A stretch of 40,604 nucleotides of DNA from Coleofasciculus sp. B1-GNL1-01 (GTDB lineage: Bacteria > Cyanobacteriota > Cyanobacteriia > Cyanobacteriales > Coleofasciculaceae), in assembly GCA_040220235.1 (NCBI GenBank), contig JAVJTO010000128.1. One strand, written 5' to 3'. The notes beneath the pieces were generated by a model. It saw only the letters and a program-made list of their open reading frames with translations, was not told the origin of the DNA and searched no databases. Made by a program: the position numbers and the translations under genes. Below are positions 13,231-20,063 of the stretch, in pieces. Position 1 is the stretch's first letter; each line of letters begins with the position of its first letter.

Positions 13231-13923
13231 ATGAACTTCTTCAATCCCACAGAGCCAATTCTTCGTACCAAACAGCACGCACTCGACTACCAAGACCGTC
13301 AAGGATTGTTACGCCTGCATTGGCAACTCGGACGGAAGACACTGCTATCAGCCTTTTATACCCGTATCGACCAGGTATTCCTGTTCTGGGGTATAATTTG
13401 CGCCATGATTTTTATCACTGCCCAGTTTTTGCCGATTAGCTGGAAACTCCAAGCTGGACTGTGGTCAGGACTTACCCTAATTGGCACCGCAGCGATGGTG
13501 GTACTCACCAACTTTTGGGTAAAAGTTGAACGCCTCAATTGGCTACTTTATTTCTGGGGAGTCCTCATGATTGGTGGTGTCATTCTCACCGATTTGAGCA
13601 TTTTCCTGGGTTGGGGACATTTGTTGATTCGCCTTTGTCACCTATGGTTGGGACTGTGCGCTGTGGGCTATATCGGTACAGGACTAGGGATGCGATCGCG
13701 TGCCTTTACTCTCGCAGGTATCATTCATTTACTGGGTATTGCGCTTTTAAACTATGTCGGAGGTTGGCAGTTTCTCACCACGGGTATCGTGATGGCTGCC
13801 TCTCTACTGATGTTTGCCGAAACCCAGTGGGATATGCGTCCTCCCATTGAGTACAAGCTGTTAACGCTAGAACAACGACAGTTCAATCAACAGCAGCATC
13901 AATTGCGTCAACTTTCTTTGTAG
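13231..13923 (+). CDS. Hypothetical multi-TM membrane protein
   Basis: 230-aa ORF with about 6 hydrophobic helices. Confidence 0.75.
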   Translation: MNFFNPTEPILRTKQHALDYQDRQGLLRLHWQLGRKTLLSAFYTRIDQVFLFWGIICAMIFITAQFLPISWKLQAGLWSGLTLIGTAAMVVLTNFWVKVERLNWLLYFWGVLMIGGVILTDLSIFLGWGHLLIRLCHLWLGLCAVGYIGTGLGMRSRAFTLAGIIHLLGIALLNYVGGWQFLTTGIVMAASLLMFAETQWDMRPPIEYKLLTLEQRQFNQQQHQLRQLSL

Positions 13924-14023
13924 AACCGATAACTATACTCTTTTAGATGGATAGCAAATTGTTGTCCTTTATACCTAACGGTCGATAAACTGAAAGGGTT
14001 TAGCCGCTACTATGAGAAATAAC

Positions 14024-14253
14024 AAAGGAATTGCACCGGATTGGGCGTTTTGCTGCTGTGGTCCATTGGTTGCACATCGAAGGAGAGCGACGTCAGATGT
14101 GCAAACGGTGCAACTGAATTGCTGAGCTAAGGTGGTGTGAAGTTTTTGTCGCTTCCTTCACTTTGTTACTACCAACGGGAGACGAAACTCTCCATCAGAG
14201 CGGTCGAAGGTAGTAGACACCGAATTAGTCAGCTTATCCAATCAAATTCCTTT
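14024..14253 (+). ncRNA. Candidate highly structured ncRNA of unknown family
   Basis: About 8 nested helices, 5'/3' end pairing, loop-loop complementarity, a TACTAT -10-like box upstream and a terminator downstream. Confidence 0.6.
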
Positions 14254-14265
14254 ATAAAAAAACCT

Positions 14266-14315
14266 AAATAAAAGTTGGTGAAGTAGTTTAACCTATCTTC
14301 ACCAACTTAATTTTT
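14266..14315. terminator. Bidirectional intrinsic terminator
   Basis: 12-bp stem AAGTTGGTGAAG/CTTCACCAACTT flanked by A- and T-rich tails, between convergent units. Confidence 0.75.
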
Positions 14316-14383: not shown

Positions 14384-14536
14384 TTACCAATCCGCTCTTC
14401 TGGGTTCGTGGAAAGGTTCACCACTGAAGGGTTGCACGCCCGTAGACGGATAAGCATCGTCACTGGGACCGAAAATTCTCACAACCGCTTCTGATATATA
14501 TTGGGTTATTTCTGCAAACAGTTTGGAAATATTCAT
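14384..14536 (-). CDS. Small 50-aa cyanobacterial protein (IFGPSDDAYPSTGVQPFSGEP type)
   Basis: MNISKLFAEITQYISEAVVRIFGPSDDAYPSTGVQPFSGEPFHEPRRADW with a strong GAGGAGG RBS; below the ORF-track cutoff. Confidence 0.8.
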   Translation of the reverse strand: MNISKLFAEITQYISEAVVRIFGPSDDAYPSTGVQPFSGEPFHEPRRADW

Positions 14537-14922
14537 AACCTTGTCCTCCTCATAGAGTAAATCTCAATCAGATTTAAATTGGGTGTATTGGTATGCAATT
14601 CACTTTAGATTATGAGGGATACACCCCAAAAAAACAGTATTTTGCAACATTTATTTGATTATGTTTGCAATACTTTTCCCAAGCTTCAGTCAAATGCCCG
14701 ATTATTCGCTATTTGTATAAATTTTCGTTTACATCCTTGACATTCTGTAATGATTTGTTGCACTCATGCTGGGAAATCCTGACATTCGCTACGAGAGTTC
14801 ACCAAACTTAAACGCCTGATCGTATAATGGCACAAGCAGGCTTAACTGCGGCTGCTGCACCGAAGTCTGCCAAACGCTCTACATTGATTAAGGCAAGTCA
14901 TTGTGACTTGTTAGGTATAGTT

Positions 14923-16377
14923 ATGCAGCCGAAAAATTTGCGCCGACTCCTGCGGGCACTGTCTCGACAGGGGTTGGATGTTCACTACAATCATCCGATC
15001 TACTCTGTACGTCTGCAAAATTCTGCCAATGCGCCTGTGGCAGAGGTTTTACTCCCAGAAGGGTTTCCAGTGGAAGCGAAAGCGTTTAAACAGTTGGCGA
15101 ATCTGGCAAACATTCGTCATCCATCAGGGGGTCATGTTTGTCAGGTTTGCGCTACGCCAGATTTTCACCCCGGTGACGCCGGAGTTGCTATCGGTTCAGT
15201 CGTGGAAACGGAAGGGATGATTATTCCCGCTGCTGTTGGTTCTGATATCAACTGTGGGATGCGATTACATCTGGCGGATTTGTCGATTGATGACTTTTTA
15301 GAGAAACGCGATCGCTTTGTTGAGTTGATCAAAGGGGATTACTTTTTGGGTACTCGTGATGTCACCATGACAGCCAAAACCAGTCGGGCTTTATTTGAAC
15401 ATGGGATTCCAGGTTGGCTGGATGGGATGCTGGATTTACCAACGGGTAGTTTCGTCAACTCTGAACTGGATCAGTTAGCGGCTGAATGCGATCGCGTTTT
15501 CTTGGGTGGTTCCCTGGATGGGTCAATACGGTGGGCACCAGAGGAACTCGTTCCAGAGGAGGGATGGGTGCGAGATGGGGGATTGGGAACCATTGGCGGT
15601 GGCAATCATTTTGTGGAAATTCAGATGGTTGAGGCGATTGAAGATCGGGCAAGGGCGTTTGCTTGGGGAGTGCGAGAGGGACAATTGGCATTTATGGTGC
15701 ATTCCGGTTCTCGGAATGTGGGCAAATTTATTGGGGGACTGTGGCGAACCCGTACTCAAGCGGTTTGGTTACAAGGACATCCTTATCCAGAGTCTCGGCT
15801 GTTTTCTCTGTCGGTTCACCGGAACCCTGATTTGGTGCAGGATTATTTGCAAGCCCAAGCAACCGCCGCTAACTATGGTTTTGTCAATCGGCTTGTGTTA
15901 GCGGAACTGTTACGGTTACGCTTACGGCAGGTTTATGGGGATATAGAAGCCCCCTTGGTTTATGATTTGCCCCATAATATTACATTGCCTCAAAAGGAAT
16001 CCACTCAAATTCATCGGTGGATAACTCGCAAAGGCGCTTGTCCAGCTTATGCCGAACAGCCTGTGATTATTCCGGGTTCAATGGGAACACCCTCTTACCT
16101 AGTCGTTGGTAAAGGAAATCCCGCCTTTCTCTGGAGTGCATCCCATGGCGCAGGACGGTTGCGATCGCGCTTTGAACTGAGTCGTCGTGGGGCGGGTTAC
16201 TGTGAGGAAACCTTAGGGTTAACGGGTGTTGATTGCATTACCCTGCGGGAAGAACGGCGGATTGAAGAAGCACCTGCGGCTTATAAGCCCATTCAGCCCA
16301 TAATTGAGGCACAAGTTAAGGCAAAGATGGTCAGTGTAGTGGCGCGTTTACGACCGATTTTGACGTTTAAGGCGTAA
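14923..16377 (+). CDS. rtcB: RtcB family RNA 2',3'-cyclic phosphate/5'-OH ligase
   Basis: PDFHPG, GSDINCG, GGGNHF, HSGSR, PHN, RKGA, PGSM, SHGAGR and EEAPAAYK all intact. Likely start MQPKNL, with TATAAT at 14823. Confidence 0.92.
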   Translation: MQPKNLRRLLRALSRQGLDVHYNHPIYSVRLQNSANAPVAEVLLPEGFPVEAKAFKQLANLANIRHPSGGHVCQVCATPDFHPGDAGVAIGSVVETEGMIIPAAVGSDINCGMRLHLADLSIDDFLEKRDRFVELIKGDYFLGTRDVTMTAKTSRALFEHGIPGWLDGMLDLPTGSFVNSELDQLAAECDRVFLGGSLDGSIRWAPEELVPEEGWVRDGGLGTIGGGNHFVEIQMVEAIEDRARAFAWGVREGQLAFMVHSGSRNVGKFIGGLWRTRTQAVWLQGHPYPESRLFSLSVHRNPDLVQDYLQAQATAANYGFVNRLVLAELLRLRLRQVYGDIEAPLVYDLPHNITLPQKESTQIHRWITRKGACPAYAEQPVIIPGSMGTPSYLVVGKGNPAFLWSASHGAGRLRSRFELSRRGAGYCEETLGLTGVDCITLREERRIEEAPAAYKPIQPIIEAQVKAKMVSVVARLRPILTFKA

Positions 16378-16473
16378 TTTGTGGGGGGGAAGTATTCGTG
16401 CCAAAAAATTGCTCCGATGCCAAATTTAATTCAGAAGGTATAGGGCTATTTGGGGGCTTGCTACTACAATTGA

Positions 16474-16504
<31 letters not shown>

Positions 16505-16579
16505 TAGCGCTACGCGCTATACGTCTGATTTGTTCATGGTTCATGACAATCAACGCTGAACAATACCCATCTGAAACTT

Positions 16580-17956
16580 ATGCCACAGGAAGATCAGCAA
16601 CTCACTCTCACTCCAGCCGATTACAGCCTATTAACCGATCTCTATGAACTGACCATGGCAGCTTGCTATGTTGGTGAAGGGTTAGAGAATCGACGCGCCA
16701 GCTTTGAGTTATTCGTGCGACGTTTGCCTAACGGCTTTGGCTATTTAATTGCTATGGGATTAGCACAGGCGTTAGATTATCTGGAGAAGCTTCAATTCTC
16801 CGAATCCCATATAGAAGCGTTGCAAGCAACAGGGCTATTTGATCAAGTCCCAGAACGCTTTTGGTCAGTCCTCAAGTCAGAAGGATTTTCTGGCGATGTT
16901 TGGGCTGTACCTGAAGGAACTGCCGTATTTGCCAATGAACCTCTGCTGCGTGTCGAAGCCCCTTTGTGGCAAGCCCAACTCGTCGAAACGTATATTCTCA
17001 ATACAATTAATTACCAAACCCTGATTGCAACTCGATCAGCGCGGATGCGAGATGTTGCTGGAGAGGATGCCAAGCTGTTGGAATTTGGTACCCGCCGTGC
17101 GTTTAGTCCACAAGGCGCAATCTGGGCAGCACGGGCAGCATTAGCCGCTGGATTTGATTCTACCTCAAATGTGGTCGCCGCGCTAAGGTTGAACCAAAAA
17201 CCCAGTGGCACAATGGCACATTCGCTGGTGATGGCAATTGCTGCTGTATCTGGGAGTGAAGATGAGGCATTTAGTGCATTTCAACGCTATTTTCCCACTG
17301 CGCCTCTATTAATTGATACTTATGATACAGTTGTAGCGGCTCAACGTCTGGCAGAACAGGTCAAAGCCAATCAAACAAACGTTGCAGGTGTGCGCTTAGA
17401 TTCTGGAGATATTGCTGATCTGTCTAAACAAGTGAACTCGCTGCTACCAGAAGCGAAAATCTTTGCCAGTGGTGACATGGATGAATGGGAGATTGCCAAA
17501 ATTAAACAAGCAGGCGGTATTATTGACGGCTATGGTGTCGGTACGCGATTAGTTACAGGTAAGCCAGTTAATGGAGTGTATAAACTGGTGGAACTGGATG
17601 GCATTCCTACGATGAAACAGTCGAGTAGTAAAGAAACCTATCCTGGACGTAAACAAGTTTTCCGCCATTGCGTGGACGGGAAAATTAGCAAAGATCGGCT
17701 GGCAATGGTATCTGAATCTCCTCAAGCAAATGAACAACCATTGTTGCAACTCATGGTTCAAACGGGTAAACGGTTAAACCCACCGGAACCATTAGCGGAC
17801 ATTAAAAAACGCACAGCGGCAACTGTGGCAATGATTCCTGATGCAATCCGCCAACTTGATGATCCCCAACCCCTACAAGTAGAGATTTCGGATGAATTAC
17901 AACAGCTTACTCAACAGACAGAAAAACGATTAGAGCAAGAAGCGACTGATGTCTAA
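16580..17956 (+). CDS. pncB: Nicotinate phosphoribosyltransferase
   Basis: LLTDLYELTM, EFGTRR, GTMAHS, LIDTYD, GVRLDSGD and GVYKLV motifs. Confidence 0.93.
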   Translation: MPQEDQQLTLTPADYSLLTDLYELTMAACYVGEGLENRRASFELFVRRLPNGFGYLIAMGLAQALDYLEKLQFSESHIEALQATGLFDQVPERFWSVLKSEGFSGDVWAVPEGTAVFANEPLLRVEAPLWQAQLVETYILNTINYQTLIATRSARMRDVAGEDAKLLEFGTRRAFSPQGAIWAARAALAAGFDSTSNVVAALRLNQKPSGTMAHSLVMAIAAVSGSEDEAFSAFQRYFPTAPLLIDTYDTVVAAQRLAEQVKANQTNVAGVRLDSGDIADLSKQVNSLLPEAKIFASGDMDEWEIAKIKQAGGIIDGYGVGTRLVTGKPVNGVYKLVELDGIPTMKQSSSKETYPGRKQVFRHCVDGKISKDRLAMVSESPQANEQPLLQLMVQTGKRLNPPEPLADIKKRTAATVAMIPDAIRQLDDPQPLQVEISDELQQLTQQTEKRLEQEATDV

Positions 17957-18034
17957 ATGTAGGAGGCATATAGCAGCTCAAAGAAAACCGATAACCTGAA
18001 AAAATACATTCTGAAATAGGGGTTTGAGTAAAGG

Positions 18035-18372
18035 CATGCGTGTCAACTTAAGAGGAAACGCAAGCTAAGTGGAATACCACTGACTTTAGAGTTTGTAGTA
18101 AGCGATGCGAGCGCTTCTGGCATGCTTCGTGCCTACTACGAACCCAGCTTAAGTCAGTGACATTCAAGGTAAGTGAGCCTTTGAATCTCGCTGCCTTAAA
18201 AATAACCCCCCTTAATCCCCCCTTGCTAAGGGGGGAAATCAAAGCCATTTTAGTTCTTCGTTCCCTCCTTACCCCCTTTTTTCTCCCGGTTCCCTCCCCT
18301 TGATAAGGGAAGGGTTAGGGTGGGGTTATATCAAGGTATTACTTTCGTTTTAAGCTTAAGTTGACACGGATG
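18035..18372. mobile_element. 338-bp MITE with 18-bp terminal inverted repeats and a 9-bp target-site duplication
   Basis: CATGCGTGTCAACTTAAG ... CTTAAGTTGACACGGATG, flanked by GAGTAAAGG at 18026-18034 and 18373-18381. Confidence 0.88.
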
Positions 18373-18379
18373 GAGTAAA

Positions 18380-18440
18380 GGGCGACCCGAGCAAATTGAG
18401 TGGATACAATTGTTGCTTTGTGCAAGCGGGTCGCCCCTAC
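18380..18440 (-). repeat. GTAG-REP pair (GTAGGGGCGACCCG...CGGGTCGCCC)
   Basis: Same family at 22934-22996 and 38660-39092. Confidence 0.75.
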
Positions 18441-18668
18441 ACGAGGATCAAAGATGACATGCTCTTTCCTTTGAGTAGGTTGGTGAAAATACACCCAACA
18501 CTCCACCAGCGTGTAAATAGTCCTCAGACCCTTACAATAAGACGTAGCTTGCTTCTTTTCGGGAGCGAGTATGACAAATGACGATAAGATCCGTTAAATT
18601 TAATTGTTCCCAACTACTTATCTGTATCCTCCTGCCCAATCTATCATGACGATGCTAACGGACTTGAT

Positions 18669-19235
18669 ATGACAACTATTGCCTTATTCGGAACGAGTGC
18701 TGATCCACCCACCGCAGCCCATCAAACTATTCTTGAATGGTTGTCCAACCATTACGATAAAGTCGCTGTCTGGGCGTCAGATAATCCGTTTAAGTCTCAC
18801 CAAACCTCCCTGGAACACCGTAAGCGGATGTTAGAGGTGTTAATTTCCGAAATTGAAACACCGCGAAATAATATTGGTGTGCATGAGGAGTTGAGTCGTA
18901 GTAGAACCCTAGAAACGTTAGCCAAAGCCAAGGAAATTTGGGGGGATGGGGTGGATTATACTCTCGTAGTGGGTTCGGATTTAGTCAATCAGATACCTAG
19001 TTGGTATCGAATTGAAGAATTACTCAGTCAGGTACAGTTGATGGTTGTACCGCGTCCCGGTTATGACATAGACGAGACAGGTGTAGAACGATTAAGGCAA
19101 CTTGGCACTCAGGTGGCGATCGCGGATCTGAATGTTCCTGGAGTGTCCTCCACAGCCTATCGTGAAAAAGGAGACCCAGATGTCATAACCCCTTCTGTTC
19201 AAGAGTATATCAATCGAGAAAAATTGTACGCTTGA
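18669..19235 (+). CDS. nadD: Nicotinate-nucleotide adenylyltransferase
   Basis: FGTSADPPTAAH, VGSD, VSST..R and YI..EKLY motifs. Confidence 0.9.
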   Translation: MTTIALFGTSADPPTAAHQTILEWLSNHYDKVAVWASDNPFKSHQTSLEHRKRMLEVLISEIETPRNNIGVHEELSRSRTLETLAKAKEIWGDGVDYTLVVGSDLVNQIPSWYRIEELLSQVQLMVVPRPGYDIDETGVERLRQLGTQVAIADLNVPGVSSTAYREKGDPDVITPSVQEYINREKLYA

Positions 19236-19328
19236 TCAACGGTGACTCCGGAACAGGGACGTTCTTAGTTATACTTTTAGGGGGACTGTCACTTTTTTAA
19301 GTTCAAAACGTCACAGTTTTGGATAATC

Positions 19329-20063
19329 ATGTCAGAACGCGGCATCAAACCGATCAACCAACCAGCGTTAGCTGACTTCAAAGTCAGTGTTGACACTGTT
19401 ATTTTCTCGGTCGATACTCAACAAAACCGCGTCTTGGTGCTACTAATCATGCGCCAGGATGAACCTTTTTCCGATCAGTGGAGTTTGCCAGGAACGCTGG
19501 TGCGCCAAGGAGAATCCCTAGAAGATGCTGCCCATCGGGTTCTGGTGGAAAAAATTCGGGTGAATAATCTCTACTTAGAACAACTCTACACCTTTGGTGG
19601 TCCGCATCGTGATCCCAGAGAATCCCCGAAAAGCTTTGGCGTTCGTTATCTATCCGTTAGTTACTTTGCCTTAGTTCGGTTTGAAGAAGCCCAGTTTATG
19701 GCGGAGGGTATGAGTGGTATGGCTTGGTATCCGGTTAAGCAGATCCCTCCCCTAGCCTTCGATCATGGCAAAATTATTGAGTATGGATATCAGCGTTTGC
19801 GGAATAAGTTAGAGTATAGTCCTGTCGCGTTTGACGTATTACCCGATGTTTTTACGCTGAGTGATTTGTATCAACTCTATACTACTGTTTTAGGCGAAAA
19901 CTTCTCAGATTATTCTAACTTCCGCACCCGTTTGTTGAAGTTGGGTTTTTTAGCCGATACGGGTCTAAAAGCCTCACGGGGAGCAGGGCGTCCAGCGTCT
20001 TTATACCGCTTTGATGCTGAGGCGTTTGCACCCTTGAAGGATAAGCCGTTAGTTTTTCTTTAA
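19329..20063 (+). CDS. nrtR: NrtR-type Nudix/wHTH transcriptional regulator of NAD metabolism
   Basis: Nudix-like WSLPG..ESLEDAA, LEQLYTFG...RDPR, LAFDH, and wHTH NFR...GRPASLY. Confidence 0.85.
   Translation: MSERGIKPINQPALADFKVSVDTVIFSVDTQQNRVLVLLIMRQDEPFSDQWSLPGTLVRQGESLEDAAHRVLVEKIRVNNLYLEQLYTFGGPHRDPRESPKSFGVRYLSVSYFALVRFEEAQFMAEGMSGMAWYPVKQIPPLAFDHGKIIEYGYQRLRNKLEYSPVAFDVLPDVFTLSDLYQLYTTVLGENFSDYSNFRTRLLKLGFLADTGLKASRGAGRPASLYRFDAEAFAPLKDKPLVFL

Follow-up and report, generated by a model that had tools for sequence, protein, structure and literature searches.

CyVA-1 is the first domain of a larger RNA with two crossed loop-loop helices

What is the multi-helix element that lies between a membrane-protein gene and a terminator-like hairpin in the genome of Coleofasciculus sp. 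B1-GNL1-01, and what may it do? The element was seen by folding the sequence of a 40,604-nucleotide stretch of this genome (the window), and the earlier note on this DNA had described it as unrecognised. A check against Rfam of the cmscan type revealed that positions 14033-14111 of the + strand match CyVA-1 (RF02965) with 82.1 bits against a cut-off of 41.4, and that model positions 1-77 are complete. The element is therefore partly known and can no longer be called unrecognised, an outcome that the earlier note had itself named as counting against novelty. No further Rfam family came near its cut-off.

CyVA-1 RNAs average 78 nt according to a passage of Weinberg et al. 2017 (PMC5737381), and a passage of a halite metatranscriptome study (10.1101/761684) places CyVA-1 at low abundance in cyanobacteria. 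The CyVA-1 three-way junction (P1-P2-P3) is present in the element, as indicated by both the Rfam match and the covariation. The RNA is not complete at about 78 nt: all 20 distinct CyVA-1 loci examined run on into a covarying second domain (D2). The published CyVA-1 motif is a fragment of a larger RNA, and membership in CyVA-1 is unaffected by this. The 77-position model of RF02965 spans only the first of two junction domains (D1), which is already catalogued and whose function is unexplained; the 3' domain and both pseudoknots fall outside the model, no other Rfam family comes near its cut-off there, and long-range pairs are absent from the structure line of RF02965. The element shares with CyVA-1 a first domain that fits the whole model and a cyanobacterial range. 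It differs in being a unit with a core of about 200 nt, in which a second domain is joined to the first by two crossed loop-loop helices (kisses), and in having a linked protein gene. An extended form of CyVA-1 was not found in the literature searched, where the supplement of Weinberg et al. lay outside the reach of the search; a CyVA entry is absent from the mSystems supplements examined, and a literature search for the identifier RF02965 gave no match. The features of the locus are listed below, all on the + strand.

13231..13923 (+): upstream gene of a 230-aa membrane protein, the candidate partner, with six predicted transmembrane helices, an N-terminal beta-hairpin and a C-terminal helix
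13975..13985 (+): partial match to the upstream motif CTnnAGAnnGA from an EM motif search, a probable promoter element
14008..14013 (+): −10-like hexamer TACTAT, seen in the sequence
14019..14026 (+): A-rich leader motif (ATAACAAA-like) from a motif search, the probable 5' end region
14031..14113 (+): domain 1, the CyVA-1 three-way junction (RF02965 score, covariation)
14031-38/14106-13 (+): P1 of domain 1
14042-45/14062-65 (+): P2 of domain 1
14070-78/14096-104 (+): P3 of domain 1
14052..14057 (+): L2 strand of pseudoknot PK2, partner 14199-14204 (covariation)
14086..14091 (+): L3 strand of pseudoknot PK1, partner 14148-14153 (covariation)
14114..14130 (+): inter-domain linker of variable length (8-220 nt among homologues), whose 3' part extends P4 (lengths, outer-arm pairing)
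14121..14233 (+): domain 2, beyond the Rfam model (20/20 CyVA-1 loci, covariation in P4-P7)
14131-34/14218-21 (+): P4 of domain 2, plus a variable extension
14137-42/14156-61 (+): P5 of domain 2
14167-73/14209-15 (+): P6 of domain 2, with P6b at 14176-77/14205-06
14178-82/14189-93 (+): P7 of domain 2
14148..14153 (+): L5 strand of PK1 (covariation)
14199..14204 (+): 3' strand of PK2 (covariation)
14272..14315 (+): terminator-like 12-bp hairpin 14272-83/14297-308 and T run, from the sequence

Structure of the RNA and covariation of its loops

Every stem proposed by hand-folding is present in the sequence at its proposed position, and the complementarity of the loops AGCGAC and GTCGCT, the hexamer TACTAT (14008-13) and the 12-bp hairpin with its T run were likewise confirmed. 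The folding energy is by itself weak evidence for structure, with z scores of −1.57 on the + strand and −3.60 on the − strand and a + strand minimum-energy structure that is a different fold.

The proposed structure was explored by covariation in an alignment of 91 non-redundant two-domain sequences made with MAFFT and not structure-fitted, 2 of 93 sequences having been dropped for long insertions. The test was an in-house R-scape-like procedure that uses an APC-corrected G statistic and 60 tree-based null alignments. At E ≤ 0.05, 24 of the 19,503 column pairs were recovered; 23 are proposed pairs, and the remaining one (14176-14206) extends P6. Over the whole structure 90.4% of the cells are paired, versus 39-46% in slid controls. 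Helices P4-P7 of domain 2 covary; some of the invariant letters of this domain were fixed by the search pattern, and the covarying letters were free or limited only to purine or pyrimidine.

Both loop-loop helices are among the covarying elements. The kissing loop that the earlier note had proposed, between 14086-91 and 14148-53, stands as PK1; the note had overlooked a second one, PK2, between 14052-57 and 14199-204, which covaries as well. PK1 is paired in 98.7% of the cells and contains the covarying pairs 14091-14148 (E < 0.017) and 14087-14152 (E = 0.017), and PK2 is paired in 93.2%, with the covarying pairs 14054-14202 (E = 0.017) and 14056-14200 (E = 0.033). Two loops stand out in each domain, a short U-rich hairpin loop and a long loop rich in purines. 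PK1 joins the long loop of D1 to the short loop of D2, and PK2 joins the short loop of D1 to the long loop of D2. All six positions are Watson-Crick in 74 (PK1) and 26 (PK2) of the 91 sequences, versus none of the 91 for either kind of pairing within a domain. This reciprocal crossing of long and short loops, shown by covariation that would look alike for intra- and intermolecular kisses, indicates that the RNA is a covalently linked, loop-swapped pseudo-dimer.

The loops of D1 and D2 have motifs in common. The Rfam CyVA-1 model scores 28-31 bits on D2 in some genomes and 13 bits here, and homology between HMM profiles of the two domains is weak, with 12 of the 91 sequences scoring above shuffles. 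Since this profile homology is weak despite the common loop motifs, the descent of D2 from D1 is likely and not proven.

Other parts of the proposed fold fared differently. The closing stem 14024-30/14247-53 is at chance level, as leader and trailer can pair in 65 of 168 loci versus 41% of mismatched controls, whereas the extension of P4 is supported by outer-arm pairing in 117 of 168 loci versus 40% of controls. The alternative 12-bp helix, regarded as switch-like, contains the pair 14080-14158, which is A.C in 62 of the 91 sequences, and the competing P5 is fully paired (6/6) in 87. The switch-like character does not hold, because the alternative helix is unconserved while P5 is maintained. 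Two further candidates were abandoned: a P8 mini-hairpin at about 14195-14208, which shows no covariation and was replaced by P6b, and the pair 14046-14061, which is paired in 42% of cases.

The Rfam type 'Gene; sRNA' could be read as pointing to a base-pairing sRNA that targets mRNAs, which would agree with a small independent gene present in 1-4 copies per genome. The conserved loops, however, occupy each other and covary with each other, which leaves little conserved free seed, and this role is extremely unlikely.

Distribution, natural variants and viral relatives

RF02965 matches 16 of the 151 genomes of a phylum sample. The RNA is found in 1-4 copies per genome, two of them in this genome of 8.66 Mb, where the second copy has an unrelated context. 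The existence of tandem and decayed copies is what one would expect of a MITE or other repeat. The copy number of two and the long-range covariation nevertheless refute this origin, whose probability is negligible, and the sole terminal inverted repeat, which is the closing stem, is unconserved.

A pattern restricted to D2 detected at least 120 stretches in GTDB genomes. In 104 of the matches listed, a profile search finds D1 followed by D2, and the covariance model detects both domains in L039. The order is permuted in L120, L122 carries D2 without D1, L140 is a doubtful case, and the other 12 matches arose by chance. Most of the named hosts among these listed matches are cyanobacteria, and two are Acidobacteriota (scores of 116 and 128 bits). 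Of 113 metagenome stretches, 90 contain a D2 match: 84 of normal layout, two tandem and four with D2 only, the latter comprising three short loci and one weak match. One record titled Candidatus Sericytochromatia (L084) carries the RNA at 197 bits together with a protein typical of Coleofasciculaceae, and its label may be wrong.

Several natural variants were observed. In a circularly permuted copy (L120:291-512, identical to L180:1356-1577) D2 precedes D1 and both kisses are 6/6, and its flanks contain one decayed domain of each kind. This layout is as would be expected from a tandem duplication followed by reciprocal decay. The permuted copy directly precedes a reading frame that resembles short-chain dehydrogenases. 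Arrays in which two or three units follow one another head to tail, with a period of 215-299 nt, occur in L025, L401, L410 (1188-1580) and L469 (475-904), and in L468 (531-1198), which has three units; in L401 and L410 a single terminator-like hairpin follows the last unit. Deleted or decayed copies are found in L209, L122 and L464-L467. The copy at L209:1501-1661 (−) lacks P3 and that at L122:283-371 (−) lacks all of domain 1, domain 2 being largely intact in both. In the lone weak domain-1 copy at L463:508-583 (−) the two loops could pair with each other at 5/6 positions, and this copy is possibly a reversion to a single unit, possibly a product of decay. Two further RNA copies (L003 and L018, in G144:C1) are separated by 726 bp and are part of a duplicated unit; a nearly identical reading frame begins after each of them. 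Judged from their sequences, the permuted, tandem, deleted and single-unit variants point to a modular RNA.

Double pseudoknots, invariant loop nucleotides, permutation and tandem copies are common in small ribozymes. The presence of all four in this RNA is what a self-cleaving or processing ribozyme would display, in line with the description of the element as ribozyme-like. That description found no support in Rfam, where no ribozyme family came near its cut-off. The layout is moreover that of an ordinary promoter and terminator, and the invariant positions lie mostly in or beside the kissing helices, some of them fixed by the search pattern. A ribozyme is therefore, in our judgement, very unlikely.

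Relatives of a single unit were found in viral sequences. With a pattern based on the long loop, 53 viral loci were obtained; in six of them a fully complementary short-loop motif is located 31-53 nt away, versus a single match of this kind in the whole rest of the sequence of these loci. Each of the six consists of one L3-type hairpin and one complementary L5-type hairpin; together they use five different hexamer pairs, and the hairpins occur in both orders. Two of the six (L475:~950-1035 and L511:~950-1035, both on the − strand) directly precede terminase genes, a tRNA is found near one, and several viral units lie just before a start codon. Patterns for two domains gave no match in one search of viral sequences and one chance match in another. 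Single-domain patterns gave 30 viral matches, none of them convincing, and a further such pattern gave 19, with L336 alone weakly suggestive and unsupported by model R1. No match was obtained with the RNA by blastn against phage and plasmid records, a scan of 50 cyanophage records (mostly fragments) with RF02965 and a CP12-guided viral search gave nothing real, and no homologue of the 230-aa protein was found in viral contigs.

Genomic context and the neighbouring membrane protein

Terminator-like hairpins are present 3' of the RNA in 102 of 170 loci on the + strand, versus 40 on the − strand and 14-18 in shuffles. The assignment of the RNA to the + strand is thus supported by these hairpins and by the Rfam match. 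When 136 non-redundant upstream regions were searched for motifs by EM, the motif CTnnAGAnnGA emerged, located mostly 53-62 nt before P1 in homologues (log-likelihood 147 versus 29 in shuffles), and the A-rich leader motif peaks 10-12 nt before P1 (67.5 versus 25.9 in shuffles). Hexamers of the type TAnnMT form only a weak peak, at −23/−22 in homologues, and a simple promoter and terminator scan, sigma-70 included, listed neither TACTAT nor the 14272-14308 hairpin.

Downstream of the RNA, the closest ORF lies on the other strand in 50 of 85 loci; it belongs to mixed families, none of which recurs widely outside Microcoleus synteny. Upstream, the closest ORF has the opposite orientation in 18 of 87 loci. 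The covariation, the upstream motifs, the own-strand terminator and the inconsistent downstream gene favour the proposal of a stand-alone structured ncRNA, and from its sequence the RNA is a probable stand-alone gene, with a predicted transcript of about 14019-14310. A cis-acting switch, whether a riboswitch or an element in the 3' UTR of the upstream mRNA, would fit the distance of 79-300 nt that in many loci separates the RNA from the membrane-protein gene before it, and also the viral units directly before start codons. It is nonetheless highly improbable: neither a conserved alternative fold nor a consistent regulated downstream gene was found, the RNA has its own upstream motifs, and the neighbouring ORFs on either side vary in strand as described above.

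Contigs from RNA libraries cover the gene and the RNA at flat depth in two of four runs, which is uninformative on transcription, strand, level and ends, and in the other two runs the 50-aa ORF described below is the sole region covered. In related-strain contigs from two RNA-library runs, 154 or 177 different letters stand in place of 14219-14264.

Convergent to the RNA is a 50-aa ORF (14384-14536, − strand) with no Pfam, NCBIfam, PADLOC or PHROGs match, which is present in 144 of the 151 genomes of the order sample introduced below and is probably a real small protein. The terminator-like hairpin at 14272..14315 probably serves both genes. Further downstream (14827-20063) are an rtcB-like RNA ligase gene (PF01139) and a NAPRTase-like gene, followed by genes that look nadD-like and NUDIX/NrtR-like by their motifs. 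Since just 8 of 88 loci have the NAPRTase cluster close to the RNA, no tie between the two is claimed.

The upstream gene behaves differently. Its 230-aa product has no Pfam, NCBIfam, PADLOC or PHROGs match. The AlphaFold2 model (pLDDT 85.7) has six long helices, an N-terminal hairpin and a C-terminal helix. Foldseek gave no match at E ≤ 0.001, and the best natural match by VIA-align, TMEM45A (Z 11.8, rmsd 3.9, 166 aligned residues), is within the range common for helical bundles. An Atlas search gave hypothetical cyanobacterial clusters only, and a search of a 50%-cluster library gave 111 matches, all unnamed. A gene of this family lies no more than 3 kb from the RNA in 44 of 88 genome loci, a set with many Microcoleus members, and in 40 of the 88 it is the nearest upstream gene on the same strand. 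Of 62 longer metagenome loci, 27 also contain it. The mean protein identity is 60%.

In the phylum sample, the protein scores split into a long form, found in 13 genomes that all carry the RNA, and shorter paralogues, which as sole copies occur in RNA-negative genomes in six of seven cases. The order sample is larger and partly overlaps it: 63 of its 151 genomes have the RNA, and 45 have the long form at E ≤ 1e-90, a cut set post hoc after the score gap was seen. Of these 45 genomes 44 carry the RNA, 28 with the two genes adjacent and 16 with them on different contigs, some of which may be assembly breaks. The lone exception (G279) passes the long-form cut without the RNA and encodes a short-type protein. 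Conversely, 19 of the 63 RNA-positive genomes have no long form, and in G011, G083 and both Acidobacteriota genomes no homologue of the protein was found at E ≤ 0.001. The distribution is strongly nested, as the long form is almost never found without the RNA and the RNA is often found without the protein. These counts include kin, the largest Microcoleus synteny cluster comprising 21 loci, and the joint loss of neighbours can be one deletion; on the protein tree the short and long forms need two changes, and one origin is also compatible. The control neighbours in the order sample, NAPRTase (126 of 151) and the 50-aa ORF, do not track the RNA, and because both are near-universal they are weak controls for lifestyle-linked co-occurrence.

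Residues Q21, D22, R45, F218, N219, Q222 and R226 are invariant in 23 long forms and mostly lost in 13 short forms. They lie outside the predicted membrane helices, several of them are acidic or polar rather than basic, and the membrane core is conserved in long and short forms. On these grounds the upstream membrane protein may be the partner of the RNA.

The nested distribution and the tandem pseudoknotted repeats could also arise if the protein were harmful or leaky alone and the folded RNA bound and silenced it in the manner of an antitoxin, spare RNAs persisting as orphans. Six-helix barrel folds are indeed among the weak structural matches, TMEM45A being one. In type III toxin-antitoxin systems a pseudoknot repeat array lies upstream of an RNase toxin gene. 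Here the RNA is downstream of a membrane-protein gene and mostly single-copy, the protein has no PADLOC or PHROGs match, the RNA has none in plasmid or phage records, and the chromosomal context is stable, with the protein identity given above. An antitoxin-like inhibitor is accordingly quite unlikely.

Possible roles and comparison with other structured RNAs

Three systems offer points of comparison. OLE RNA, as described in passages of PMC12265935, is likewise a structured, trans-encoded RNA with its gene beside that of a membrane protein, and its link with OapA was first suspected from gene co-location. According to the same passages it is about 600 nt long, is found in Gram-positive bacteria and has a four-helix OapA as partner, whereas the RNA described here is about 200 nt, mainly cyanobacterial and next to a six-helix protein. 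It matches no OLE model and often occurs without the neighbouring protein, which, with six predicted helices and no Pfam or NCBIfam match, does not correspond to the four-helix, CNNM-like OapA. The pRNA of phi29 (a passage of PMC5066667) also has a three-way junction and two loops that pair with the loops of another unit; in the present RNA crossed pairing is favoured over pairing within a domain, and two of the six viral single units precede terminase genes, which we take as an analogy only. In contrast to pRNA, the RNA is chromosomal, gives no sequence or Rfam match to it, and consists of two non-identical units fused and held by 6-bp kisses. ROOL and GOLLD share with it covarying kissing loops, a variable linker, phage-borne relatives and an unexplained function, according to passages of PMC12286853. 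The solved examples of these RNAs are 550-830 nt long in a passage of PMC12990946, versus about 200 nt and no ROOL or GOLLD model match here; the window contains no tRNA, and oligomers of the present RNA are a proposal from sequence. The RNA thus resembles pRNA in its interlocking, ROOL and GOLLD in its kisses and linker and possibly OLE in its gene partner, and is a member of none of these families by size, sequence and context.

Assembly of the RNA independently of protein would be a different outcome of the same kisses. If they were intermolecular, RNA-only dimers or rings like those of pRNA, ROOL or GOLLD would form, and the protein gene would be an old neighbour or co-regulated. The linker of 8-220 nt, the free order of the domains, the tandem arrays, the viral single units, two of them just upstream of terminase genes, and the 19 genomes with RNA and no protein all agree with this, and the covarying kissing loops of ROOL and GOLLD turned out to be intermolecular bridges (a passage of PMC12286853). 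It does not explain why the long form lacks the RNA in just one of 45 genomes, why 16 pairs persist on different contigs, or why the set of cytoplasmic residues decays in short forms. We consider RNA-only assembly unlikely, although it deserves serious attention.

The reading that we tentatively favour, and to which we give a probability approaching an even one, is by analogy that of a stand-alone scaffold RNA, a loop-swapped pseudo-dimer that would dock on the six-helix membrane protein as OLE does on OapA. The compact, double-kissed fold would make a rigid scaffold rather than a switch. Where the protein is present, the RNA may bind its cytoplasmic face and so be tethered at the membrane, like OLE RNA with OapA. 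The dependence would be one-way, with the long form needing the RNA and the RNA having a role also without the protein. A role in stress or desiccation is a guess, prompted by host names that refer to mats, crusts and halophiles.

A more elaborate version is possible, at a probability clearly below even: a phage-type kissing unit may have been duplicated and have given rise to a pseudo-dimer or ring on the six-helix protein, which it would gate or organise. As part of this version, and with the same restraint, the complex could be a membrane ribonucleoprotein of mat, crust and halophilic cyanobacteria, a second and independently evolved OLE-like system.

As a motif, CyVA-1 has been an orphan since 2017. 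Because the catalogued model covers less than half of the molecule, work on the 78-nt piece would miss the fold of the RNA. Its function becomes directly testable now that the complete structure, natural variants and a specific candidate partner are at hand. The kissing module itself, in which a long purine-rich loop and a short U-rich loop carry exchangeable 6-bp codes, is a natural programmable RNA connector. If the link to the protein is true, this would be the second bacterial membrane ribonucleoprotein after OLE, and one small enough for routine structure work.
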